From an uncultured Saprospiraceae bacterium (lineage in GTDB: Bacteria > Bacteroidota > Bacteroidia > Chitinophagales > Saprospiraceae): DNA of 30,991 nucleotides. The DNA lies in NCBI GenBank assembly GCA_937127195.1, contig CAKZLT010000687.1, forward strand, positions 1-30,991, written 5' to 3'. Made by a program: the position numbers and the translations under genes. Positions 7,118 through 23,991 of this stretch are shown here, piece after piece (position 1 is the first letter of the stretch; every line of letters begins with the position of its first letter). Below the pieces are notes generated by a model. It did not search any database. It saw only the letters and a program-made list of their open reading frames with translations, and was not told the origin of the DNA.

Positions 7118-9430
7118 ATGATGAATTTTACAAAATTAGGATTAGTAGCATTTGCACTAATACTTTCTGTGAATGTATTTTCACAAGAAAAGTTCAAACA
7201 ATTAAAAGAAGAGTTGGCTACGCCTAATGTTTACAGAACAGCATCAGGTGCACCAGGTCATGAATATTGGCAGCAAAAAGCTGATTATAAAATTGACTTA
7301 GAGTTAGATGACGAAAAACAAAAGATTTATGGAGAAGAAACAATTACTTATGTAAATAATTCTCCTGATGCTTTATCTTACTTATGGGTACAATTAGACC
7401 AGAATATGAGAGCTAAAGACTCTCAAACAAAACAAATAAAAGAAAATAAGTTGTCTGATAAAATGTATTCATTTTCATTAGATTCTTATTATAGTGAATT
7501 TGATGGCGGTTTTAAGATTGACCACGTAAAGGATGCTAATGGAAAAGCATTACCACATACTATTAATTACACAATGATGCGTATTGATTTACCTAAGCCA
7601 TTGAAAGCTGGAGGTAAGTTTGTGTTTAGTATCAAATGGTGGTATAATATTAATAATGCCTTAGTTGGTGGCGGACGTTCTGGATATGAGCATTTTGAAG
7701 AAGAAGATAATTATGTTTATAGTATTGCTCAGTTCTATCCTAGAATGGCAGTCTATAATGAAGTAGAAGGATGGCAAAATAAACAATTCTTAGGACGCGG
7801 AGAGTTTGCATTAACTTTTGGTGATTATGAAGTGAATATAACTGTTCCTTCTGATCACATTATTGCATCAACAGGAGAGCTTCAAAACGCAAAAGCAGTT
7901 TTAACTAAAGAACAAAGAGAGCGTTTTGAAAAATCAAAAACAGCTAAAGAACCTGTTGTAATTGTTTCTCAAGATGAAGCAGAAGAAAAAGAAAAAACAA
8001 AATCTGATAAAAAAAGCACTTGGACATTCAAGGCTTCTAATGTTCGTGACTTTGCTTTTGCTTCTTCTCGTAAGTTTATTTGGGATGCAATGGGTGTTAA
8101 ATTTGGAGCTAGAACGGTAATGGCAATGTCTTACTATCCAAAAGAAGGTAACCCGATTTGGGGAAAGTATTCAACAAAAGCAGTAGCACATACCTTAAAA
8201 ACGTATTCAAAATATACTTTTGATTATCCTTATCCAGTAGCTATTTCTAGTCATGCGGTATTTACAGGAATGGAATATCCTATGATTTCATTCAATTTTG
8301 GTCGTCCTGAAGCTGATGGTACATATACACCGCGTACTAAATATGGTATGATTGGAGTTATCATTCACGAAGTTGGACATAATTATTTTCCAATGATTGT
8401 TAACTCTGATGAACGTCAGTGGACTTGGATGGATGAAGGATTGAATTCATTTTTGCAGTATTTGACAGAGCAAGAATGGGAACATAACTACCCTTCTCGT
8501 AGAGGCCCAGCTTATAAAATTACAAGTTATATGGGTGGAGATAAATCAAAAATTTCTCCTATTATGACCAATTCAGAATCTATTTATCAGTTTGGTAATA
8601 ATGCTTATGGCAAACCTGCAACAGCTTTGAACATTTTGCGTGAAACGGTTATGGGGCGTGAGTTATTTGACTTTGCATTTAAGACTTATTCACAACGTTG
8701 GATGTTTAAGCACCCTACTCCTGCGGATTTCTTTAGAACAATGGAAGATGCATCTGGTGTTGATTTGGATTGGTTTTGGAGAGGTTGGTTCTATACAACA
8801 GACCATGTTGATATTGCTGTAACAGGTGTTAAATGGTCTAAATTGGATTCTCAAAATCCTGATGTAGAAAAAGAATTGGCTAGAAAGAAAGATGCTGAAA
8901 AGCCAAGATATATCACAGATGTAATTAATGATAAGTTACTTAAAGGAAAAACGGAATTAGAAAAAGACGCTTCTTTGGTTGACTTCTATAATGAGTATGA
9001 TGAATTTGATGTAACTATCTTGGACAAGAAATCTTATAAGAGATACTATAATACTCTTTCTGATAAAGAGAAAAAATATTTGGAACAGAATGATAATTTC
9101 TATGAAGTTACTTTTGAAAATAAAGGCGGATTAGTAATGCCTATTATTGTTCAATTGAACTTTAAAGATGGGACTACGGAATTGCATCGTATTCCTGTGG
9201 AAATTTGGAGATTTGATAGCGAATCTGTTACCAAAACATTTGTTACTAAAAAAGAGGTAGAAAGTGTATCACTTGACCCTTATGTAGAAACAGCAGATGT
9301 AGAAACAAGTAACAACCATTTTCCACCAAAAGCGGAAATGTCTAAATTTCAGATATATAAGTATAAGAAACGCTCTAGTGAGAATACTATGCAAAAAATG
9401 AAGAGAGCTAAGGAAATGGAGAAAAAATAA
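7118..9430 (+). CDS. M1 family zinc aminopeptidase, exported
   Basis: Signal peptide ending ...VFS-Q; exopeptidase motif GMEYP; HEVGH-X18-E zinc motif (HEVGH at 8366-8380). Confidence 0.92.
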   Translation: MMNFTKLGLVAFALILSVNVFSQEKFKQLKEELATPNVYRTASGAPGHEYWQQKADYKIDLELDDEKQKIYGEETITYVNNSPDALSYLWVQLDQNMRAKDSQTKQIKENKLSDKMYSFSLDSYYSEFDGGFKIDHVKDANGKALPHTINYTMMRIDLPKPLKAGGKFVFSIKWWYNINNALVGGGRSGYEHFEEEDNYVYSIAQFYPRMAVYNEVEGWQNKQFLGRGEFALTFGDYEVNITVPSDHIIASTGELQNAKAVLTKEQRERFEKSKTAKEPVVIVSQDEAEEKEKTKSDKKSTWTFKASNVRDFAFASSRKFIWDAMGVKFGARTVMAMSYYPKEGNPIWGKYSTKAVAHTLKTYSKYTFDYPYPVAISSHAVFTGMEYPMISFNFGRPEADGTYTPRTKYGMIGVIIHEVGHNYFPMIVNSDERQWTWMDEGLNSFLQYLTEQEWEHNYPSRRGPAYKITSYMGGDKSKISPIMTNSESIYQFGNNAYGKPATALNILRETVMGRELFDFAFKTYSQRWMFKHPTPADFFRTMEDASGVDLDWFWRGWFYTTDHVDIAVTGVKWSKLDSQNPDVEKELARKKDAEKPRYITDVINDKLLKGKTELEKDASLVDFYNEYDEFDVTILDKKSYKRYYNTLSDKEKKYLEQNDNFYEVTFENKGGLVMPIIVQLNFKDGTTELHRIPVEIWRFDSESVTKTFVTKKEVESVSLDPYVETADVETSNNHFPPKAEMSKFQIYKYKKRSSENTMQKMKRAKEMEKK

Positions 9431-10955: not shown

Positions 10956-11227
10956 ACCTTTTAGTTTGATAATTACTGATTTTAAATCATTAACTTGACT
11001 GATAAGTTTCTTGAATATAAATAATTGTGTAAAACGGATAATTATTAGTCTTTAATTATTTTATATATTAATATAACGATTATTATATACTTAACATTTT
11101 GCTACTCGTATTTTCAAGTAAAACAATTGTTAATAATTCAAATTTAACATCAACTAGACAGAAAAGTGTTTAAATTATACCGTTTTTTGCGAAGTTGATT
11201 AACCATTTTTATAAAAATATGAAAAAT

Positions 11228-12301
11228 ATGAAAAAAATAATTCTACTATTATCCATTTTAACAATTTCTCTCAATACAATTATTGGGCAGACTTTTATAG
11301 AGCCTTGCAAATACGGTCAACCATTAATTAATGCCGTTCGCATTGCTTACAAGCCGAATAACACGATGGGTTACAATACTGCGAGAGATACTCTATATTC
11401 TCAGATTGACAATGTTGGAAATGATTTATTTGGAATATATTCCAATTTCAAGGTAACGCTTGACCCTAATGTAGATCCGAGTGTTTCAGCTTTTCAGAAT
11501 GGCTCAGGTATTAATGCTGAACACGTTTACCCTCAATCAAAAGGAGCAGGAAGTGAGCCTATGAGAAGTGATATGCACAACCTCTATCCTTCTAAAGTAA
11601 ACGTGAATAGCGCAAGAGGTAGTTGTAAATTTGGTGAAATTCCAGATGCGAGTACTAGTACTTGGTTTTTTGAAGCAACAGCACAAGGAAATATTCCGTC
11701 TTCTAATATTGATGCGTATAGTGAAAAAAATAATAATACTTGCGTTTTTGAACCACGAGAGAGCAAAAAAGGAGATATTGCAAGAGCAGTTTTTTATTTT
11801 TACGCAATATATCAATCACAAGCGAATAATGAAGACCCAAATTTCTTTGCAAGTCAAAAAGATGACTTATTAGCATGGCATTACGCTGATTTGCCAGACT
11901 CTATTGAATTAGCAAGAAGTGCTCAAATAGCAATGCGTCAAGGTAATGAAAATCCATTTGCATTAGATACTTCTTTGGCGCGTCGTGCTTTCTTTATGGC
12001 AGATGCTTCTTACCCTGCTGGTGATGGTAATTGCTATGATGTGTTGATTTCTAATACTAATGACTTGGCTCAAAATGACTGGATTAAGCTTCGTACGAAT
12101 GTTATTCGAAATGTAATTGAATTGGAAAGTACTAAAAATGAAGGAATTGTTCAGGTATTAGACTTGACAGGTAGAGTATTATTAAATGTAGCTTTAGAAA
12201 ATAATAATCAATTGAATCTTAGTAACTTAAGTGCAGGATTGTATGTTGTTCGAGTATTTAGTGAAGGGCAAAACGCCGTATTTAGAATCTTGAAAGAGTA
12301 G
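11228..12301 (+). CDS. Endonuclease I (EndA/NucM family) extracellular nuclease with T9SS type A sorting domain
   Basis: NAEHVYPQS, SDMHNLYP, NSARG, KGDIARAVFYF and QGNENPF motifs; C-terminal ...LDLTGR...LSNLSAGLYVVRV...ILKE CTD. Start moved from TTG 11195 to ATG 11228 (alternative 11219). Confidence 0.9.
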   Translation: MKKIILLLSILTISLNTIIGQTFIEPCKYGQPLINAVRIAYKPNNTMGYNTARDTLYSQIDNVGNDLFGIYSNFKVTLDPNVDPSVSAFQNGSGINAEHVYPQSKGAGSEPMRSDMHNLYPSKVNVNSARGSCKFGEIPDASTSTWFFEATAQGNIPSSNIDAYSEKNNNTCVFEPRESKKGDIARAVFYFYAIYQSQANNEDPNFFASQKDDLLAWHYADLPDSIELARSAQIAMRQGNENPFALDTSLARRAFFMADASYPAGDGNCYDVLISNTNDLAQNDWIKLRTNVIRNVIELESTKNEGIVQVLDLTGRVLLNVALENNNQLNLSNLSAGLYVVRVFSEGQNAVFRILKE

Positions 12302-12711: not shown

Positions 12712-15700
12712 CTACTCATTTACCACGATACGCTCCAAATTAGTCCAATCTTTCAACTCATCTGTATAGTATAAGTAAGCACTGGAAGCAGGCGCATCAA
12801 ACGAGCCAGCAATATCCGCTTTCAAATCTAAATTGATAATGCGCTCCTCGGAAGGCTTCATTTGACGATAATAAAAGACTAAATTATTACCAATCACTTC
12901 ATAGAAATCAAAAGCTTTTTTATCCAATAACTCCTTCAATTGCCATGGTTGAGCCGTCAAACCAGCAGGTAAACCAACAATTGCCATCGTCATCGGTTGA
13001 CCTTCTGCAGTACTGTTTGTCAAAGTTGTTTTTAGGCGAACCGTTTCACCTACTTTGATTTTCGTTTTAGTAATTTTGGTATTTAACTTCACCACACATT
13101 CTTTTTGAGAATTAGGTAATGCAGTCGAATAATTCATGGCTACCGTATAAGGAAGAGCCGTTTTAGTATTTGAAAATTTAACTTCGATATCATTTTTCTT
13201 AGAAGACATGAAAGACTCTAAACCAGCCAGAACGATAGGCTCTTGATGACCTTTTTCGTAATTGAATGTTTTAGCTTTTTTACCATTAACAAAAACGTCA
13301 ATTGTGCCTGATTCGTCAGTGCGCTTGCTAAATTTGGCGAAAGCCACCAAAGCACGCAACGCCAAAACGGTACTATTGGTAGAGGCATAGCCACCAAAGC
13401 TACTTCTACTTTTCTTAATAAAATCCATGCAGTTCTTCAATTTCGTACGGTCTGGATTTTTACTTTTCATGGTTGCCAATGCCGCCAAAGCCGCTGTTTC
13501 GATGCGTAAAGCATTTCCAGAAGAACCAGGAGCCGATTTGTGACTACTGCCATGTTTCCAAGCACCTTCATCTTCCTGAATTGCCATCAATAAATCTAAG
13601 ATAGCCTGTCCGCGCGTTTCATCTTTTCTATTAAAAAGAATGTTAGCCACCAAACCTAACTGATATGGATTCTTAGTCTTTTTAGCTTCGGCATAAGCAA
13701 AATCAACTTCCGTTTGAATATCCGTGAAATTCGCTTCACTCAATGCCCAAGTAATGTAAATACTCATCGTTTCGTTGTTGGTTAAACCAAACTGATGCAA
13801 GGCACGCGGATTGCGTTTGAACTGCCCCATTCCGTCTCTGCGCTTCATTAGCCATTCAGTTGTACGATTAATCATTGCATCATCAACGCCATCATAAACC
13901 TTCTTCATATCCACGAATTCCATCAAACCGTAAGCGGTTAAACCTTCGTGTCCAGGGTCGCCACCAAACCATTCGAAACCACCTGAAGCAGACTCGTAAC
14001 CTGCCAAACGCTTATAACCAGCAGCAATAAACTGTTTGGCTCTTGCCGAAATATCAGGTTTTGCTTGATTGGTTTCTTGCAAATAATTCAAGACCAAAAT
14101 ATTCGGATAAGTCGAAGATGAAGTTTGCTCAAAACAGCCACTCGGTTGTCTCAACATCGATTCTAGCCCCGAAAGCATATCACTCATCGCTGAAGGATAA
14201 GCAGTTACATAAGCATCTAATGAGCCATCAACCATATTGCTAATATCAAAAGGATAAGATTTACTCATTGCTTCTCCTGACATCGCAACCGATACAGGGA
14301 ATCCTTTTGAAATGACGGTCAAAGACTTTTCTATTTCGTCATTAAAACCACTGCTTTTGAAAGCTATTGATATTTTATCAGCTTTTCCACGCGTTTTTAC
14401 ATCGAAAGCTAAGTATTGTGTTTTGGCTTGTCCTGCTTTTAAGGTTGCGCTAGTAGGTAAATTACCTTTTGGCGAAAGCCCTTTAGGATACTTAATATCT
14501 AAATCACCTTTAATTGTTTTTTTAGTATTATTGACTAAAGTCAAAGGAATTTTTACTACATCTTCCGTGATTACTTCAATCGGTAATTTTGCCGAAAGGC
14601 TAAATGGTAATTGCGTGAAAAATTGCTTTTCTGCGCGTCCAATCATTCCATCAACAGCAAAACCTTCTGCTGTAATTTTGAACGAAGTCACTGCGTCCGA
14701 ATTATAAAATTCTAAGACTGCTTTTCCTTTTCTATCAATTTTGACATTTCCGTTCCAGTAAGTGGTACTTCTAAAATCTGTGCGTTTTTCAATTACTTCA
14801 TCTCTATCATAAGCTGGACCCGAAAACTCTCTGGCTCTATAAAACTTACGATTTCTATTGCTACGAGCTAATTTTTGAATGCGCCTTCTTTTTGGCAAGT
14901 CAAAGTTTCTATTGATAGGAATAGAACGAAGTTCTCTTTCATCATCATGGTTACTATCTCTAGCATTCAATTTGAAACGAACAGGCAGATTATAACGAAC
15001 TCTTACAGGACGACCTCTTTGCTGACCTGGCGTGAATTTTTTAGGAAGTGCATTTAGTGTGTTTAAAGCAGCTAATGCTTCATTTCCAGCACCTCCACCA
15101 ATATCTCTAAGTACCTTTGCATTGACTACTGAACCGTCCGTATCTACGACAAAACTCACTACTACTAAGCCTTCGATATTATTCTCTTTAGCGATATTCG
15201 GATAACGTAAATGCTTATAAACGTGTTTTAAAAGGTTTTCTTCTGTGCATCGTTTGCGTTCTTGATTAGTTGCTAAGTCGCCACAAGTAGGAAATGTTGG
15301 CATTGTCTCGACAATGCTAAAAATTTCTTCAATAGCTTCTTCTTCTATTTCTTCTGCTTCTGCAAATACATCTATTTTGGCATCAGCATTAATATCCATA
15401 TCCTCTAAAAGAACCCTTCTATCTTTTGCAAATCGGTTATCTACCACTTTCTTTTTAGCATCTTCCATGACGGCTAGCCTTTTCATTTCTTTTGCCTTGC
15501 GTACTTCACGTTTTGCTTGCGGTCTTTTTTGACGTTTTTCAGCCTCCATTTTTGCCAAATTCTTTATTTCATTTCTAGCTACTTTTTCTTTTACAGCCAA
15601 AAGAGCAGGTTTCGGCGGACGAGGAGCAATAGCTACATTTTCTACAATTTCTTCTTTATCAAAAGCTACATCATCAAATGCAATATTTTCTTCGGTTTCC

Positions 15701-17727
15701 TCGTCTGGTACTTCTTCAATAGCAGGTGGTTCAGGAATGCCTCTTCGTGCGCGGTCACGTTTTTGCTTAGATACCAATTCTCTATAACGTCTTTGGCGAA
15801 TAGCCAACTCTTCCTGCATATCAATATTATACTTGCTAGAATAGCCATAAGCATAAGTAGTGCGTGTATCATAGCCTTTTTTAGAAATGGTTAATAAAGC
15901 GCGATTATTTAATACATAACCATTAAAAGCATAAAGTCCATTTTTATCGGTTATTGTTGTAAATTTTCCATTTTCTAAAGTGACCTTTGCGCCAGCAATT
16001 GGATTATTAGTGCGTGCTTCATATACCTTTCCTGCAATCTCTGCTCGTTCGTTAGGATAACTAATTCTAGGTTGTTTTCCATTACGAATATCCTCCCAAA
16101 CAAAGCGTCTCCAGCCTGAAGTCATTAACAAATAATCCAAGGCTACGTCTGCTTTTTCTTCTTTTTTATTAAAATAAAAATTCGGCTCTTCTATCTTTCC
16201 ACGCAAATCCGCTTCCATAAGCATCCACGAAAGGATATTACTAGATTTATCATCAGCAAAAGTCAATAATTGGTCATCAACCACACTGACCGATAAGTTA
16301 GCAGGCATTGGCATACCGCGTTCATCAGCTACTTTGATGGTCATTTTTACCTTTTCGCGTGGTAAGTATTTCTCTTTATCCGTTTTGATGGAAATATTGA
16401 GTTGTTTGTCTTTATTCACGAATGCCAAACGTTCGGCTCTTTCAATACCTTTACTATCAAAGAGTGTAAAGTGTGCCACACCAATCGGAAAGTATTTGGT
16501 AGGAACAGTTGTTTTGTTTTCTCCTTTTTTAGCATTGATTTTTGTTGAAAAATGCTTTTGACCGCGTACCATTCCGACTAAATATAATTCTTCGTCATGT
16601 GTTGATTTTATATCCAAATAGACTTGCTTCGCGTCAACGTCTCGAACTTGCAGAACATAACCTGCTGGCATAGCTTCTGGTAATTCAAAGGTGTTTTGAA
16701 CGCCTGCTGGTTTGGTGATTTTGACCGTATAAGTTTCATCTTCTGATGGCGTTATCGAAAATGCGCCCATTCCTTGATGATAAGAACTGAAAGAAGAAAT
16801 GGTTTTTCCTTTACTATTCATCAAAACGCCTTCTATATCCGCGGGTTTGCCGAATTCATTGAGTGCTTTAAATGCAACTTTTGAAGCCAAACCAGTAACT
16901 AAATCTCCACCTTCTGGATATAACCTCATTTGAATGTTATTCAATACTATTGGGACAGAACGAGAAATAGATTCAGTTTGCCCTTGATATCTAATCATAA
17001 TATTGAGTATTCCATCATTGGATTTGAGATTTTTAGGTAGATTAAACTTAACCATTGCCTCGCCTTCATTTCCTGTTGAGCTTTTCCCTTTTTTGATTTC
17101 TTTTCCTTCAATTTTGACTACAAAATTGAAATTGTGATTAGCTAAAGGTTGGTTAGCGTTATCTTCAATAGACAATTCGGCAGCCACTTCATCGCCTGAA
17201 CCATAAGCTTTCTTCATAAAATCAAGCTTCATTTTTAATCGTGGTAAGACGACTTTTTGAACGGTGAGTTCTTTTATAAAAATGGCTGGATTTTTATCAT
17301 TTAATAACCAGTTAGTGAATACTTTGACTTTATAAATACCTCCTACGGCATTTTCATCAATCTTAAAATCGCCTTTTGCAATACCATCTTGAGCAATGAT
17401 TTTATATTCTTTTTCGATTGCACCTTTTGGGTTAATCAATTGAATAGAGACAATATCTGATTTATTTGATGCTTTCAATGATTGCCCTTCACGGATATAA
17501 GCACTGAACCAAATCGTCTCGCCTGGTTTGTAAAGTGTTTTATCAAAATGAGCGTAAACACGGTCTTCAGGAAGACTTTCATTGAAAGCACGGAGGTTTT
17601 TAAGAATATCTTCTAATACGGTATTTACTTGTTGTTTGATGAATCGCTGGGTTTGATTGGGCAATGCTGCAAAAGCAATTGAGCCAATCAAAATGAGACT
17701 AAGGAGGGTGATTGCAATTTTTTTCAT
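12712..17727 (-). CDS. Alpha-2-macroglobulin/complement-like thioester protein with inserted carboxypeptidase-regulatory-like and TonB C-terminal domains
   Basis: Sec signal peptide without lipobox Cys; MG-domain motifs (DKTLYKPGET, TDKEKYLPREKV, VSVVD); thioester GCFEQ at 14139-14125; TED helices (GGFEWF, LTAYGL); C-terminal MAIVGLPAG...YYRQM...ASSAYLYY receptor-binding-like domain; TonB_C at about 15324-14968. Confidence 0.9.
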   Translation of the reverse strand: MKKIAITLLSLILIGSIAFAALPNQTQRFIKQQVNTVLEDILKNLRAFNESLPEDRVYAHFDKTLYKPGETIWFSAYIREGQSLKASNKSDIVSIQLINPKGAIEKEYKIIAQDGIAKGDFKIDENAVGGIYKVKVFTNWLLNDKNPAIFIKELTVQKVVLPRLKMKLDFMKKAYGSGDEVAAELSIEDNANQPLANHNFNFVVKIEGKEIKKGKSSTGNEGEAMVKFNLPKNLKSNDGILNIMIRYQGQTESISRSVPIVLNNIQMRLYPEGGDLVTGLASKVAFKALNEFGKPADIEGVLMNSKGKTISSFSSYHQGMGAFSITPSEDETYTVKITKPAGVQNTFELPEAMPAGYVLQVRDVDAKQVYLDIKSTHDEELYLVGMVRGQKHFSTKINAKKGENKTTVPTKYFPIGVAHFTLFDSKGIERAERLAFVNKDKQLNISIKTDKEKYLPREKVKMTIKVADERGMPMPANLSVSVVDDQLLTFADDKSSNILSWMLMEADLRGKIEEPNFYFNKKEEKADVALDYLLMTSGWRRFVWEDIRNGKQPRISYPNERAEIAGKVYEARTNNPIAGAKVTLENGKFTTITDKNGLYAFNGYVLNNRALLTISKKGYDTRTTYAYGYSSKYNIDMQEELAIRQRRYRELVSKQKRDRARRGIPEPPAIEEVPDEETEENIAFDDVAFDKEEIVENVAIAPRPPKPALLAVKEKVARNEIKNLAKMEAEKRQKRPQAKREVRKAKEMKRLAVMEDAKKKVVDNRFAKDRRVLLEDMDINADAKIDVFAEAEEIEEEAIEEIFSIVETMPTFPTCGDLATNQERKRCTEENLLKHVYKHLRYPNIAKENNIEGLVVVSFVVDTDGSVVNAKVLRDIGGGAGNEALAALNTLNALPKKFTPGQQRGRPVRVRYNLPVRFKLNARDSNHDDERELRSIPINRNFDLPKRRRIQKLARSNRNRKFYRAREFSGPAYDRDEVIEKRTDFRSTTYWNGNVKIDRKGKAVLEFYNSDAVTSFKITAEGFAVDGMIGRAEKQFFTQLPFSLSAKLPIEVITEDVVKIPLTLVNNTKKTIKGDLDIKYPKGLSPKGNLPTSATLKAGQAKTQYLAFDVKTRGKADKISIAFKSSGFNDEIEKSLTVISKGFPVSVAMSGEAMSKSYPFDISNMVDGSLDAYVTAYPSAMSDMLSGLESMLRQPSGCFEQTSSSTYPNILVLNYLQETNQAKPDISARAKQFIAAGYKRLAGYESASGGFEWFGGDPGHEGLTAYGLMEFVDMKKVYDGVDDAMINRTTEWLMKRRDGMGQFKRNPRALHQFGLTNNETMSIYITWALSEANFTDIQTEVDFAYAEAKKTKNPYQLGLVANILFNRKDETRGQAILDLLMAIQEDEGAWKHGSSHKSAPGSSGNALRIETAALAALATMKSKNPDRTKLKNCMDFIKKSRSSFGGYASTNSTVLALRALVAFAKFSKRTDESGTIDVFVNGKKAKTFNYEKGHQEPIVLAGLESFMSSKKNDIEVKFSNTKTALPYTVAMNYSTALPNSQKECVVKLNTKITKTKIKVGETVRLKTTLTNSTAEGQPMTMAIVGLPAGLTAQPWQLKELLDKKAFDFYEVIGNNLVFYYRQMKPSEERIINLDLKADIAGSFDAPASSAYLYYTDELKDWTNLERIVVNE

Positions 17728-18007: not shown

Positions 18008-18616
18008 CTAAGCCCTTCCAACACATTTTTCATTGTAATCTTCTGTTATTTCTATTTCATCGCCCTTTCCATACATTTTAAGCTTTAGACGTTCATATAC
18101 CTTAGGGCAATCTTCCAAATATTTCATCATTGCTTTCCTAAAGCCCATTCGTTTGGGTAAATAAAGCAAACCTTGTTTTTTTTGAAAAATCATAAATTTG
18201 GATTTATAAGAAAAATCCATATTAACGTGTTGTGTATAATAGAAAGAATATAGCCGAAGATTTCCTTCTACCTCTAACTTTAAGAAGACATAAGTTTTCT
18301 TCTTTTTAAATATCTTTTTTTCAAGATTTAAGTGGTCAATATGAGAAATAAGTCGAGTCATTTCATTGTTATATTGAAAACAAACTTCTTTAGCTTGATG
18401 AGGCTTGAGTTCTCTTTCTATATCATTAGGATCCAAAAAATGAACTCCAAAATGAATTGACCTTATATCAGGAGTATTTGTTTGTGAAATAGGAATATCG
18501 AACTGGACTTTTAGAGTATCATCAGTAAGGTTTATAAAGTAGCCTTGCACGAATCGTGCAAATGTAGAAGTATGGCACAGAAGGGTGAATACTACAATTA
18601 AATAGATTTTTTGCAT
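18008..18616 (-). CDS. Exported hypothetical protein
   Basis: Signal-peptide-like MQKIYLIVVFTLLCHTSTFA, followed by a GYFINLTDDTL...G.LRLY pattern common in Bacteroidota hypotheticals. Start moved from 18688 to ATG 18616. Confidence 0.7.
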   Translation of the reverse strand: MQKIYLIVVFTLLCHTSTFARFVQGYFINLTDDTLKVQFDIPISQTNTPDIRSIHFGVHFLDPNDIERELKPHQAKEVCFQYNNEMTRLISHIDHLNLEKKIFKKKKTYVFLKLEVEGNLRLYSFYYTQHVNMDFSYKSKFMIFQKKQGLLYLPKRMGFRKAMMKYLEDCPKVYERLKLKMYGKGDEIEITEDYNEKCVGRA

Positions 18617-18631
18617 TTGTTTGTTTGTTTG
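18616..18631. repeat. (TTTG)4 / (CAAA)4 tetranucleotide repeat abutting the likely start codon
   Basis: Minus strand reads ...CAAACAAACAAACAA-ATG. Confidence 0.75.
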
Positions 18632-18698
18632 TATTTGTACTTTTATTTGCTTCGGCTGTTTTCTTTTGTTATTTTTTGTTTCTTTCATTAAAAAATAA

Positions 18699-20445: not shown

Positions 20446-23400
20446 ATGAAAAAAATAACGAGCCTTTTCTTTCTTTTTTACTCCGTTTTTGCGCTGGCAC
20501 AAATGCCTCAACTCGTCATTCAACGCGGACATACTGCGCCTGTAACGGATGTAGTAGTCAGCCAAAAGCACGAATTGGTTATTACAACAAGTTATGACAA
20601 AACAGTTAAGGTTTGGCAAAAGGAAATCGCTAGAGAACTGCGTGCTTACACTGGTTTAATGAAAGGCTTTTTGCCAATACAATTGGCGATGAGTTTTGAT
20701 AAAAATACGGTTTTAGCTTCCTCAACAGGTGGCGCAATTACTCTTATCGACCTTTCTAAAAATGCAATTCAAACGATTGCCGCACCGCTCGATAAAGGCA
20801 TTATTAAATTACAAGCGCACCCAACTAAAGAACAAATTGTTATTGGTTACGAAGATGGAACATTGATTTTGTTTGATTATAAAAATGAAAAAATACTTCA
20901 AAGTTGGGCAGTAGGGGAGAGTGAAATAACAAAAATTCAATTGACTTCAAAAGGACGTTATCTTTTTACACAATCTAAAAAAGGCGCATTTTTGGCTTAT
21001 GATTTAAAAAAGGAGAAAACAATTGGAAGTTTTGCTCAAAACATAGTTGCTTTTAGTGTGAGCCCTGACAATCAAAAACTCTTGACGGTTGCACAAGATA
21101 GTGTTGTTTCTATTTTTAAAATAAAAAAAACAACCTTAAACGCTGCCAAAAAGATTAATACGTTTTGTCGTCAAACATTCTGGACAGCGACCAATGAAGT
21201 TTTACTCATTAATAAAAAATTTCAACTCGAAAAACTGAATGTAATTACTTTTGAAACCAAAACTGTTTCGTTTTCATTACCACGTTTTTATTGTTTAAAA
21301 ATAGAAAACAACGAATTGTATTACAATCAAGGTCCAACCCTAAAAACAGCTAATATTACTAATTTTGAACCTAAAAATACTTATAAGGGCTTTGTTGGAA
21401 ATGTTTATACGAGTAATATTAATGCGATTACTTTTCAAAAGAATGGTAGAAATATCATTGCTGGTGGTGGCGAAAAAGCCATTCAGTTTTGGGGCGAAAC
21501 CAATTATGAGACCATTCCTGTCGGTTACGAAATCAATAAACTGAAACTCAGCAAGGACGGAAAATGGCTATTGTGTAGCGGAACAGGAAAGCAATTTCAT
21601 TTGATAGATGTCGAAAAACGAGCCATTCAACAGGTTTATAAAGGACATTCTAAAGGCTTAATGGAGGTAGATTTTCTGGGAGAAGACCGAATAGTGAGTG
21701 TTAGTAAAGACAAAACGCTCAAGGTCTGGTCAATGGATTCGGCTTCGATTATCCATGATTTGAAGATGCATAATGCCTATATTTATGCTGTGGCAACAGA
21801 TGGTAACAAGATAGTTTCTGGAGACTCGAAAGGTTTAATTGTGGCTTGGAATGCTACGACGGGCGATACCATTTATACGATTCAAAATGATAAAAGCACC
21901 GTTTATGACTTGACTTTTTCGGAAGATGGAAAGACCGTTTTTGCAACTTTTGATAATGGTGATGTTTGGAGTTGGGATGATTTTCATAAGATTGATTTTC
22001 GTAAGAATTTTTCGGAAACGGTAAAACCTTCTTTTAAAATGTTGGGTGAAAATATTGTAACACTTCAAAAAAATAAAACTTTAACCAATGGCTTGATTTC
22101 GATTCAATCTGATTTTTTTAAAAATAAAAAAGAAGAAAAGAAAGGCTTTTCTATAGAAAACGAAAGCGGAATCAATGACTTTCAATGGAGCGATGACCAA
22201 CAGTTTTTGGCGTCAGCGGATGGAGATAATGCGATTCGATTGTATAATTTTAAGAATAATAAACTACTCGCGACTTGCTACACTTTGGGTAACAAAAATT
22301 GGGCAATCGTTACACCTGATGGGCTTTTTGATGCGTCTGCCAATGGTATGAATTGGCTGCATTACGCGCATTTTAATGAAGCGTTGCCACTTGACCAACT
22401 CAAAGAACGTTATTACGAACCTGACCTTTTACAAAAGCTATTAGGTTATAATGAAGAACCTTTGCGCAATCCTGCGGCGTTTGGTTCGGTAGAGTTATTT
22501 CCAAAAACGAAATGGACACTTTCGGATAATTTTATTGCAAATTTGGAGCTTTTGCCACGAAATGGCGGAATCGGAAAAGTCAGCATTTTTATTAATAAAA
22601 AAGAAATCATCGCGGATGCGAACCCCGAGCGATTGACTAACTTAGAGATTAACCTCAATCCTTATCGAAAATATCTGCTCAACGATACGACGAACCAAAT
22701 TAGCCTTCAAGTTTACAATGAAAAAGGCTGGTTACACAGCGGTTTTTTAACTAAAAACTACAAAAACAAAATCAACGCAAGAGGGACAAACACCGCTACG
22801 AATAAACCGTTAATACTCAAAAAAAGACATAAACCGACTTTTTATGCGTTGATTATCGGAACGTCAGATTATCGTGGTGAAGCATTAGATTTGAGTTTTG
22901 CGGATAAAGACGCGGCAGATATTGCAAATGCTTTAGAATTGGCAGGACAATCGCTTTTTGGCGCAGCAAACACGAAAGTAGAATTATTGAATACGTCGCA
23001 ATCCAAAGAAAAACAGCCTTCTAAAGAAAATATCAAAGCGGCTTTTGAAGTCATTGCTCAAGAAGCGAAGGCAGAAGATGTGTTTGTATTATACCTTTCG
23101 GGGCATGGTGTGAATTATGGTTCTCCGAATAGTCAGTTCTACTATTTGACAAAATCAATCGCTTCTGAAGAATTGGGCGATGATAATATCAGAACGAATT
23201 ACACGATTTCGAGTGAAGAATTTACAGCACAACTCAAAAATATTGCTGCCCAAAAGCAAATTATGATGCTTGATGCTTGTTCGTCTGGTAGCTTAGTTCA
23301 GAATATGTTATCGCAATCACGAAGCCTTTCTTCGAGCCAAAAACGCGCTTTGGACAGAATGAAAGACCGTGCTGGTGTATTCATTTTGGCAGGAAGTGCG

Positions 23401-23991
23401 GCGAATAAAGTGAGTTATGAAGCGTCGCAATTTGGTCAAGGATTGTTGACTTATAGTTTACTTTCGGGTATTCGAGGTGGTGCGCTTCGCGAGAATGAAT
23501 TTGTGGATGTGATGCAATTATTTCAATATGCGGCAGATAAAGTACCCGAATTGGCTGCCGTAATTGGTGGCGTTCAGCGTCCCGTAGTGGCTACTCCAAC
23601 TGGTACAAATAGTTTTGATATTGGTCAAATCACGGATAGCGTTCGATATAAAATACCTTTGGAAGAAGTGAAGCCACTTTTTATAAAAAGCAACTTTCAA
23701 CATGAAAAGGATTACGAAGATTTGATAGATTTGAGTGACGCGCTGGATGAGACTTTTAAGACGATTAGCGACGATTCGGATGCTAGTATTTTATTTTTAA
23801 ATGTAAAAAAATACCCCAAGGCGTATTCTATTAAAGGACGTTATCATAAAAATTCGGATGGAATGCTAGTTTTGAAGGCTAAGTTATTGAAAGATAAAAA
23901 AGCAATTGGTGACTTTGAAATCACAGAAAATACGGAAACTGAGTTGATTGATGGCGTTTTGGAAGCGGTAATGGAGTTGATTAATGAGTGA
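20446..23991 (+). CDS. Exported WD40-repeat protein with C-terminal caspase-family (peptidase C14) domain
   Basis: Signal peptide ending ALA-Q; many GH...WD-like repeats; catalytic dyad YLSGHG (His 23104-23106) and MLDACSSG (Cys 23278-23280); later G.LTY.LL and VQRP motifs. Confidence 0.9.
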   Translation: MKKITSLFFLFYSVFALAQMPQLVIQRGHTAPVTDVVVSQKHELVITTSYDKTVKVWQKEIARELRAYTGLMKGFLPIQLAMSFDKNTVLASSTGGAITLIDLSKNAIQTIAAPLDKGIIKLQAHPTKEQIVIGYEDGTLILFDYKNEKILQSWAVGESEITKIQLTSKGRYLFTQSKKGAFLAYDLKKEKTIGSFAQNIVAFSVSPDNQKLLTVAQDSVVSIFKIKKTTLNAAKKINTFCRQTFWTATNEVLLINKKFQLEKLNVITFETKTVSFSLPRFYCLKIENNELYYNQGPTLKTANITNFEPKNTYKGFVGNVYTSNINAITFQKNGRNIIAGGGEKAIQFWGETNYETIPVGYEINKLKLSKDGKWLLCSGTGKQFHLIDVEKRAIQQVYKGHSKGLMEVDFLGEDRIVSVSKDKTLKVWSMDSASIIHDLKMHNAYIYAVATDGNKIVSGDSKGLIVAWNATTGDTIYTIQNDKSTVYDLTFSEDGKTVFATFDNGDVWSWDDFHKIDFRKNFSETVKPSFKMLGENIVTLQKNKTLTNGLISIQSDFFKNKKEEKKGFSIENESGINDFQWSDDQQFLASADGDNAIRLYNFKNNKLLATCYTLGNKNWAIVTPDGLFDASANGMNWLHYAHFNEALPLDQLKERYYEPDLLQKLLGYNEEPLRNPAAFGSVELFPKTKWTLSDNFIANLELLPRNGGIGKVSIFINKKEIIADANPERLTNLEINLNPYRKYLLNDTTNQISLQVYNEKGWLHSGFLTKNYKNKINARGTNTATNKPLILKKRHKPTFYALIIGTSDYRGEALDLSFADKDAADIANALELAGQSLFGAANTKVELLNTSQSKEKQPSKENIKAAFEVIAQEAKAEDVFVLYLSGHGVNYGSPNSQFYYLTKSIASEELGDDNIRTNYTISSEEFTAQLKNIAAQKQIMMLDACSSGSLVQNMLSQSRSLSSSQKRALDRMKDRAGVFILAGSAANKVSYEASQFGQGLLTYSLLSGIRGGALRENEFVDVMQLFQYAADKVPELAAVIGGVQRPVVATPTGTNSFDIGQITDSVRYKIPLEEVKPLFIKSNFQHEKDYEDLIDLSDALDETFKTISDDSDASILFLNVKKYPKAYSIKGRYHKNSDGMLVLKAKLLKDKKAIGDFEITENTETELIDGVLEAVMELINE

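Follow-up and report, generated by a model that had tools for sequence, protein, structure and literature searches.

A TonB C-terminal domain in the bait region of an A2M-superfamily protein from an uncultured Saprospiraceae bacterium

A gene in a 30,991-nucleotide stretch of DNA from an uncultured Saprospiraceae bacterium (assembly GCA_937127195.1, contig CAKZLT010000687.1, positions 1 to 30,991; hereafter the window) encodes a protein of the α2-macroglobulin (A2M)/complement superfamily that carries a complete TonB C-terminal domain (TonB_C) inside its bait region. The gene, P0001, is a single open reading frame at 12712–17727 on the minus strand, where all features of P0001 given below also lie; its product is 1671 amino acids long and the source genome is a metagenome-assembled genome (MAG) of 769 contigs. 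The bait has acquired the periplasmic part of a TonB of the resident type, comprising a linker motif and the whole TonB_C, without the membrane anchor. The fusion is a rare, patchy and recurrent design. In our tentative judgement, TonB_C is most likely a passive docking module for TonB boxes, by which the trap would be held at the periplasmic face of the import machinery.

The bait region and its TonB-derived insert

P0001 is a thioester-containing member of its superfamily, within a large family found in Bacteroidota and allied phyla. Pfam places, in order, MG2 at residues 56–138, A2M_BRD at 435–488, CarboxypepD_reg/CarbopepD_reg_2 at 564–624, TonB_C at 839–920, A2M at 989–1076 and the thioester domain (TED) at 1180–1462, with weak receptor-binding/MG10 matches at the C-terminus. 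The scaffold domains score above their cut-offs (MG2, 67.8 bits; A2M_BRD, 24 bits; A2M, 39.6 bits), and the TED (13342–14190; E = 4.4e-36, 125 bits) contains the CxEQ-type thioester motif GCFEQ at residues 1197–1201 (window 14125–14139). Compared with solved structures, P0001 is nearest to the eukaryote-type thioester proteins CD109, A2M, A2ML1, TEP1, C4 and C3 (E = 1e-29 to 1e-11), while ECAM/YfhM gives a weak match in the thioester domain only (E ~3e-5).

A word-index search returned more than 1400 relatives of 1450–1750 amino acids, of which the best 120 were aligned. All columns of this alignment are filled through residue 639 and from residue 960 on; occupancy falls at 640 and returns at 960 (121 relatives), delimiting a hypervariable bait segment of residues 640–959 (14851–15810). 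Across family members the segment is 98–330 amino acids long, with little conservation. The end of the insert is set by three alignments to proteins of solved structure, in which P0001 976–1469 pairs with residues 10–540 of the C3b alpha' chain, and residues 969 and 976 pair with A2ML1 700 and TEP1 599, respectively. The segment up to residue ~965 thus has the same C-terminal boundary as the anaphylatoxin or bait of C3, A2ML1 and TEP1, and the conserved core restarts with the A2M (MG) domain (14500–14763), which aligns to the C3 alpha' chain. An earlier reading of this DNA made from its letters alone (the sequence-only reading) had put the insert at the position of the bait in A2M and of C3a in C3. 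Both these alignments and the hypervariability of residues 640–959 bear this out, and together with the disordered flanks described below they define a variable bait between A2M_BRD and A2M (MG).

The sequence-only reading had also taken a carboxypeptidase-regulatory-like domain to be inserted in the bait. Such a domain is indeed present (CarboxypepD_reg at residues 564–624, E = 1.4e-10; CarbopepD_reg_2, PF13715, E = 6e-9, 36.2 bits against a cut-off of 32.2), but it is not an insert. Because it occurs in nearly all of the more than 1400 family members and lies within the conserved part of the alignment, it belongs to the framework of the whole family, as a SusC-NTE-like domain that adjoins the bait on its N-terminal side (residues 563–637; 15817–16041). 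In an AlphaFold2 (AF2) model covering residues 430–1100 it is the most confident domain (pLDDT >90). Foldseek finds its best match in the PDB to be the N-terminal extension (NTE) of SusCdex, a SusC dextran transporter (9hfj; 35% identity, TM 0.84, rmsd 1.5 Å), which outranks carboxypeptidase transthyretin-like domains. Pfam and motif searches of P0001 found no TonB box of the LDEVVV type, no plug and no barrel following the domain.

The inserted fold is TonB_C, and no match to the anaphylatoxin (ANA) fold was found in P0001 with Pfam. The domain occupies residues 802–921 (14965–15324), where the sequence-only reading had called it complete, and the match to Pfam PF03544 runs over profile positions 2–79 of 79 (residues 839–920; E = 8.6e-16, 58.6 bits against a cut-off of 24.6). 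The NCBIfam model tonB_Cterm (TIGR01352) recognizes it as well, at 42 bits against a cut-off of 27.1. Among the 16 TonB_C matches in the genome the P0001 copy scores highest, with 61.3 bits as compared to 60.4 for the true TonBs. AF2 predicts the TonB_C fold at residues 821–918 (pLDDT ~80–88), and Foldseek matches it to the C-terminal domain (CTD) of Helicobacter pylori TonB (6sly and 5lw8; TM 0.55–0.62). The YP motif is retained, and in its last strand the domain hardly differs from a true TonB encoded on contig C660 of the same genome. That TonB combines membrane helices and a polyproline stretch with an acidic linker motif and a Pfam-confirmed C-terminal TonB_C. Over 118 amino acids the insert is 63% identical to TonB C660, and the two have in common an acidic run before TonB_C (residues 781–803 in P0001).

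The likeness to TonB extends to an acidic linker motif further upstream (residues 665–700; 15628–15735), which is 64% identical over 36 amino acids to the linker of TonB C660, the cores reading PPAIEEVPDEE in P0001 and PPVIEEVPDEE in TonB C660. The corresponding linker of the relative P0014 is 68% identical to that TonB over 41 amino acids (E = 1e-4), and in the whole six-frame genome the motif pattern matches five open reading frames, including the two closest TonBs and P0001. Because the likeness runs from the linker motif through the acidic run to the domain itself, what the bait took up is the anchorless periplasmic part of a TonB. In TonB C660 the motif follows the polyproline stretch, and its identification as an ExbD-binding D-box was rejected on position, as the D-box lies directly after the membrane anchor. 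P0001 has no N-terminal membrane anchor for ExbBD coupling, its sole N-terminal hydrophobic stretch being the signal peptide. With TonB_C embedded in a secreted protein that lacks such an anchor, P0001 is no energy transducer, in agreement with the sequence-only reading.

The alternating basic and acidic low-complexity blocks described in the sequence-only reading are real. In order, the AF2 model of the bait shows a basic helix at residues 641–662 (15742–15807; pLDDT ~85), a disordered acidic stretch at 672–710, a long Lys/Glu/Arg-rich helix at 711–773 (15409–15597; pLDDT 62–87) and a second helix at 781–803, followed by TonB_C and a disordered basic stretch at 923–986. The linker motif is predicted to be disordered (pLDDT <50) and is a candidate cleavable stretch; a second candidate is the basic linker of residues 922–986 (14770–14964; pLDDT 34–48), which contains RSIPINRNF and KRRR. 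The segment 711–773 is a single charged helix of ~63 residues inside the bait, with similar segments in the TonB_C-less relatives P0013–P0016, and may act as a spacer.

Polybasic sites had been proposed to bracket the inserted domains. The clusters lie exactly where they had been placed, with RQRRYR (15781–15798) and KRDRARR (15742–15762) in the basic helix and KRRR at 14881–14892. The segment that holds them is 20–24% Lys+Arg, and in composition-matched shuffles three polybasic runs of at least three K/R compare to 2.1 expected (P = 0.35) and two windows with at least five K/R in seven compare to 0.7 expected (P = 0.14). The clusters are thus what composition gives by chance, and they were rejected as specific processing signals. 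The C-terminal basic site, and with it the bracketing, is kept in the closest relative only.

Distribution and history of the fusion

Of 121 close family members, eight have TonB_C in the bait, and its site never varies. When a profile of TonB_C plus the following MG domain was run against 1.84 billion representative sequences, at least 17 further clusters at 50% identity gave one contiguous match to both, all with CxEQ downstream. A scan of species genomes located ~15 fused loci in Saprospiraceae, Lewinellaceae, Cytophagales, Flammeovirgaceae, Bacteroidales/Bacteroidia MAGs and one Chitinivibrionales MAG. Sampling 401 genomes of the phylum gave one with the fusion, and 401 of the order gave two. 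One carrier, Rapidithrix thailandica JCM 23209, is cultured; its homologue lies at L043:604-5505, and Pfam confirms the fusion architecture. The expectation of the sequence-only reading that similar fusions may already exist in databases has thus proved correct, with at least 25 distinct proteins and ~15 species genomes, and all 25 embedded copies pass a TonB_C profile. An assembly artefact is unlikely, because the fusion recurs in an independent cluster of six sequences, 99–100% identical to one another or nearly so in local alignment (as counted there), and in several relatives that come from other samples.

To follow its history, a core tree was built with the bait columns removed, alongside a tree of the TonB_C domains themselves. 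P0001, P0138 and P0017 have a common junction tail, RSIPINRNF, and therefore descend from one insertion, with P0001 and P0017 now 59% identical overall. Nested among the carriers are P0013–P0016 and P0019, which have no TonB_C and contain the TonB linker motif; P0014 also retains the first residues of the domain. This nesting and the retained TonB remnants indicate that the absence of TonB_C in these proteins reflects losses. In the TonB_C tree, P0001, P0017 and P0138 group with the genome's own TonBs (support 95) and a divergent, A2M-only set forms a separate clade (support 100). Given these two separate placements, the fusion has at least two origins, and losses have been repeated.

The linker motif is retained in nine bait regions without TonB_C, and the order of the TonB-derived pieces is rearranged between close relatives. 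The NTE also evolves faster than the core, at 44–48% as compared to ~80–89% identity. On the contig that encodes P0017, two A2M paralogues stand in tandem (L031:2489-12869), the first of which has no TonB_C and keeps the TonB linker motif; a gene for a group II intron-type reverse transcriptase lies just downstream of the pair.

Transporter parts in other baits and possible roles of the insert

Other baits of the family contain parts of the opposite side of the TonB-transporter link. They include a second full-length CarbopepD_reg_2 (77–95 bits) with a TonB box of the LDEVVVTG type directly after it and weak plug matches; proteins with PF07715 occur among the homologues, and several members combine a TonB box and TonB_C in one bait. 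In the source genome itself, where 37 Plug matches were counted, a paralogous A2M gene on contig C516 (L033:2-4708, minus strand) has a bait with two NTE-type domains, a TonB-box-like strand and the N-terminal half of a plug. The half plug scores above the Pfam cut-off (34–38 bits), and part of the bait is 50% identical over 137 amino acids to the N-terminus of a resident transporter encoded on contig C352. The C516 reading frame has one in-frame stop near L033:4064, so that it is either a pseudogene or carries an error of the MAG. Contig C269 holds at least one more fragment of an A2M paralogue, and C726 gives a short C-terminal match. The genome thus encodes one trap whose bait carries the TonB side of the link, and it has a second trap gene for a bait of the transporter side. 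Across the family, the TonB_C-side bait is a much rarer variant than the transporter-side bait. With the NTE-like framework, the other baits and the C516 paralogue taken together, the TonB-transporter interface is a recurring theme of the family.

Docking, which the sequence-only reading had put forward, is the most economical reading of an intact TonB_C. The domain is known to bind its targets by strand addition (PMC12204202), and in an Oar-type transporter the part made up of NTE and plug binds the TonB CTD (PMC6434023). In P0001, TonB_C would bind TonB boxes by beta-strand addition, either on TonB-dependent transporters or on the transporter front-ends that paralogous traps carry in their baits. 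In this way the bait would tether the trap, on cleavable linkers, beneath the outer membrane, and a protease cutting the exposed flanks (residues ~664–710 and 922–986) would trigger ordinary thioester capture. Recurrence at the same site with differing types of TonB_C argues that the domain is useful. Several observations weigh against docking. TonB_C is dispensable on short time scales, and the closest relatives (73–83% core identity) are without it, yet keep the linker motif or the first residues of the domain. On the core tree the trait requires at least six gains or losses, and the domain evolves faster than the core (68% as compared to 91–93% identity to P0138). P0001 has no recognizable TonB box of its own, and a comparison of its locus with those of relatives found no TonB, ExbBD or transporter gene as a conserved neighbor. 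A constitutive docking domain could also be costly, since soluble periplasmic TonB fragments are described, in work cited by 10.1101/2020.01.05.895219, as inhibiting the Ton system in E. coli.

The same observations can be read in other ways. The bait may be an integrated decoy that mimics the protease-vulnerable periplasmic parts of the TonB-transporter system, so that proteases severing the energy coupling would cut the mimic and be trapped, with no need for TonB-box binding. We consider this unlikely. In its favor, baits have repeatedly been built from parts of the TonB system and not from random genes, the linker motif persists in the nine baits that have no TonB_C, as expected if the sequence itself is the bait, and the half plug of C516, which cannot fold alone, nevertheless stays 50% identical to the resident transporter. 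Several paralogues can share a genome, or stand in tandem, while differing in their baits, and the NTE and TonB_C evolve faster than the core, as in arms-race baits. However, these organisms are not known to have a protease that attacks TonB or the N-termini of transporters, TonB_C, being compact and folded, is cut poorly by proteases, and the donor families are so abundant in the genome (the 37 Plug and 16 TonB_C matches above) that their over-representation in baits may be an effect of supply. It is also doubtful that the decoy or sensor role extends to a division of labor between paralogues, in which P0001 (linker and CTD) and the C516 protein (NTE, TonB-box-like strand and half plug) would together protect the two ends of the energy-coupling link from periplasmic proteases or from invaders bearing TonB boxes, and in which the two baits might bind each other as a two-part trap. 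A complex prediction of TonB_C (residues 795–925) with a 61-residue TonB-box-like fragment of the C516 bait gave a score of 0.30 (mark, 0.34), which gives no verdict and counts neither for nor against binding. For the relative P0046, which has both a TonB box and TonB_C in its bait, an AF2 model of residues 617–990 from a shallow nine-row alignment shows the TonB box at pLDDT ~44 and without a strand, and so lends no support to an internal clasp; with so few rows aligned, it does not speak against one either.

A bait site that merely accepts insertions could instead have captured periplasm-compatible fragments of abundant families by illegitimate recombination, gaining length and an exposed linker and no specific role. 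The patchy distribution with repeated loss, the variable length and low conservation of the baits, the fast evolution of TonB_C and the reordering of TonB-derived pieces between close relatives would all fit a tolerated passenger of this kind. We nonetheless think it improbable, as the domain is undegraded, with the best TonB_C score in the genome and all embedded copies passing the profile; it has persisted, with the common junction tail, since P0001 and P0017 split, an old A2M-only TonB_C clade has been kept, and the insertions are always in frame and at the same site. By analogy with C3a, already drawn in the sequence-only reading, cuts on both sides could also free a soluble TonB_C that occupies TonB boxes and shuts down TonB-dependent import during protease attack. 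AF2 does place disordered stretches on both sides of the domain, and the reported inhibition by soluble TonB fragments in E. coli supplies a precedent. Release of this kind is nevertheless highly improbable, given that it needs two cleavages, that P0021 and P0022 have just ~10 residues between TonB_C and the conserved core, that the C-terminal basic site is conserved in the nearest relative only and that no receptor-like logic is evident. Among these readings, docking remains the one we tentatively prefer.

Genomic setting, known systems and significance

P0001 is probably a soluble, Sec-exported protein, and a periplasmic location is suggested by an ordinary signal peptide without a lipobox Cys together with the lack of a type IX secretion system (T9SS) tail. 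The signal peptide (residues 1–21, of the AFA-A type; 17665–17727) and the absence of a lipobox Cys from it were read from the translation, and Pfam found no Por_Secre_tail match in P0001. The neighbors of the gene are those for an M1 peptidase, a TPR protein, a T9SS-tailed endonuclease I, a 226-aa open reading frame, ahcY and a WD40-caspase protein; no pbpC, TonB, ExbBD or transporter gene is found near P0001 among its neighbors in the window. Downstream of P0001, the M1-family peptidase (7118–9430, plus strand) and the endonuclease I with its T9SS sorting tail (11195–12301, plus strand) are ordinary secreted hydrolases. The WD40-caspase gene (20446–23991, plus strand), divergent from P0001 across ahcY, encodes a 1181-aa protein with two WD40 propellers and a caspase (C14) domain. 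The 226-aa open reading frame (18008–18688) was rejected as a conserved upstream partner, being just 18–24% identical to the genes of ~230 aa found ahead of each of the two A2M genes on the P0017 contig. No plug-less barrel partner adjoins either the P0001 gene or its C516 paralogue.

Like human A2M and A2ML1, CD109, insect TEP1 and complement C3 and C4, P0001 has an MG scaffold, a CxEQ thioester domain and a cleavable or inserted element between A2M_BRD and A2M (MG). C3 and C4 provide a precedent for a folded domain, ANA, at the bait site. Unlike these proteins, P0001 is bacterial and monomer-sized, has a SusC-NTE-like domain before the bait and carries TonB_C in place of ANA; and whereas one convertase cut, beside a processing site, is enough to free C3a, release of the P0001 insert would need two cuts. 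With the type I proteins, E. coli ECAM/YfhM and Salmonella SaA2M, it shares kinship to the periplasmic thioester protease traps of Gram-negatives, but in contrast to ECAM/YfhM it has no lipoprotein anchor and no pbpC neighbor, and its MG count and bait differ. The insert has the same family of C-terminal domain and the same fold as the TonBs of E. coli, H. pylori and contig C660, with the acidic linker motif shared with the last of these; unlike a TonB, P0001 lacks the N-terminal membrane helix, the polyproline rod and motor coupling, and its TonB_C is embedded in another protein.

TonB_C also serves as a periplasmic module outside energy transduction in M56/BlaR1-like peptidases, in VIT-VWA proteins and in MxcH-type transporters, where it is N-terminal. 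In these proteins, however, TonB_C is terminal or in tandem, whereas that of P0001 lies inside the bait of a protease trap. P0005–P0011 (~940 aa) join a TonB_C ~42% identical to that of P0001 to VIT and von Willebrand A domains such as those of inter-alpha-trypsin inhibitor heavy chains, and so represent another eukaryote-like extracellular architecture fused to TonB_C. Many of P0132–P0280 have 3–7 tandem TonB_C domains, some also with an M56 peptidase and a T9SS tail.

A literature search for A2M with TonB or the bait region found no paper on TonB parts in A2M baits, and the architecture is a rare variant of this widespread design. The specificity of A2M-type traps is commonly attributed to a short, disordered bait. 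The baits of the P0001 family have, several times, been assembled from recognizable modules of one cellular machine, the TonB-transporter link. If TonB_C docks, it would position a protease trap beneath the outer membrane without a lipid and could replace the lipoprotein anchor of ECAM-type traps; if the decoy explanation is true, these baits would parallel, in bacteria, the integrated decoys found in plant immune receptors. The cultured carrier R. thailandica JCM 23209 opens the fusion to experiments, and on either reading it points toward a testable link between periplasmic protease defense and nutrient import in Bacteroidota.

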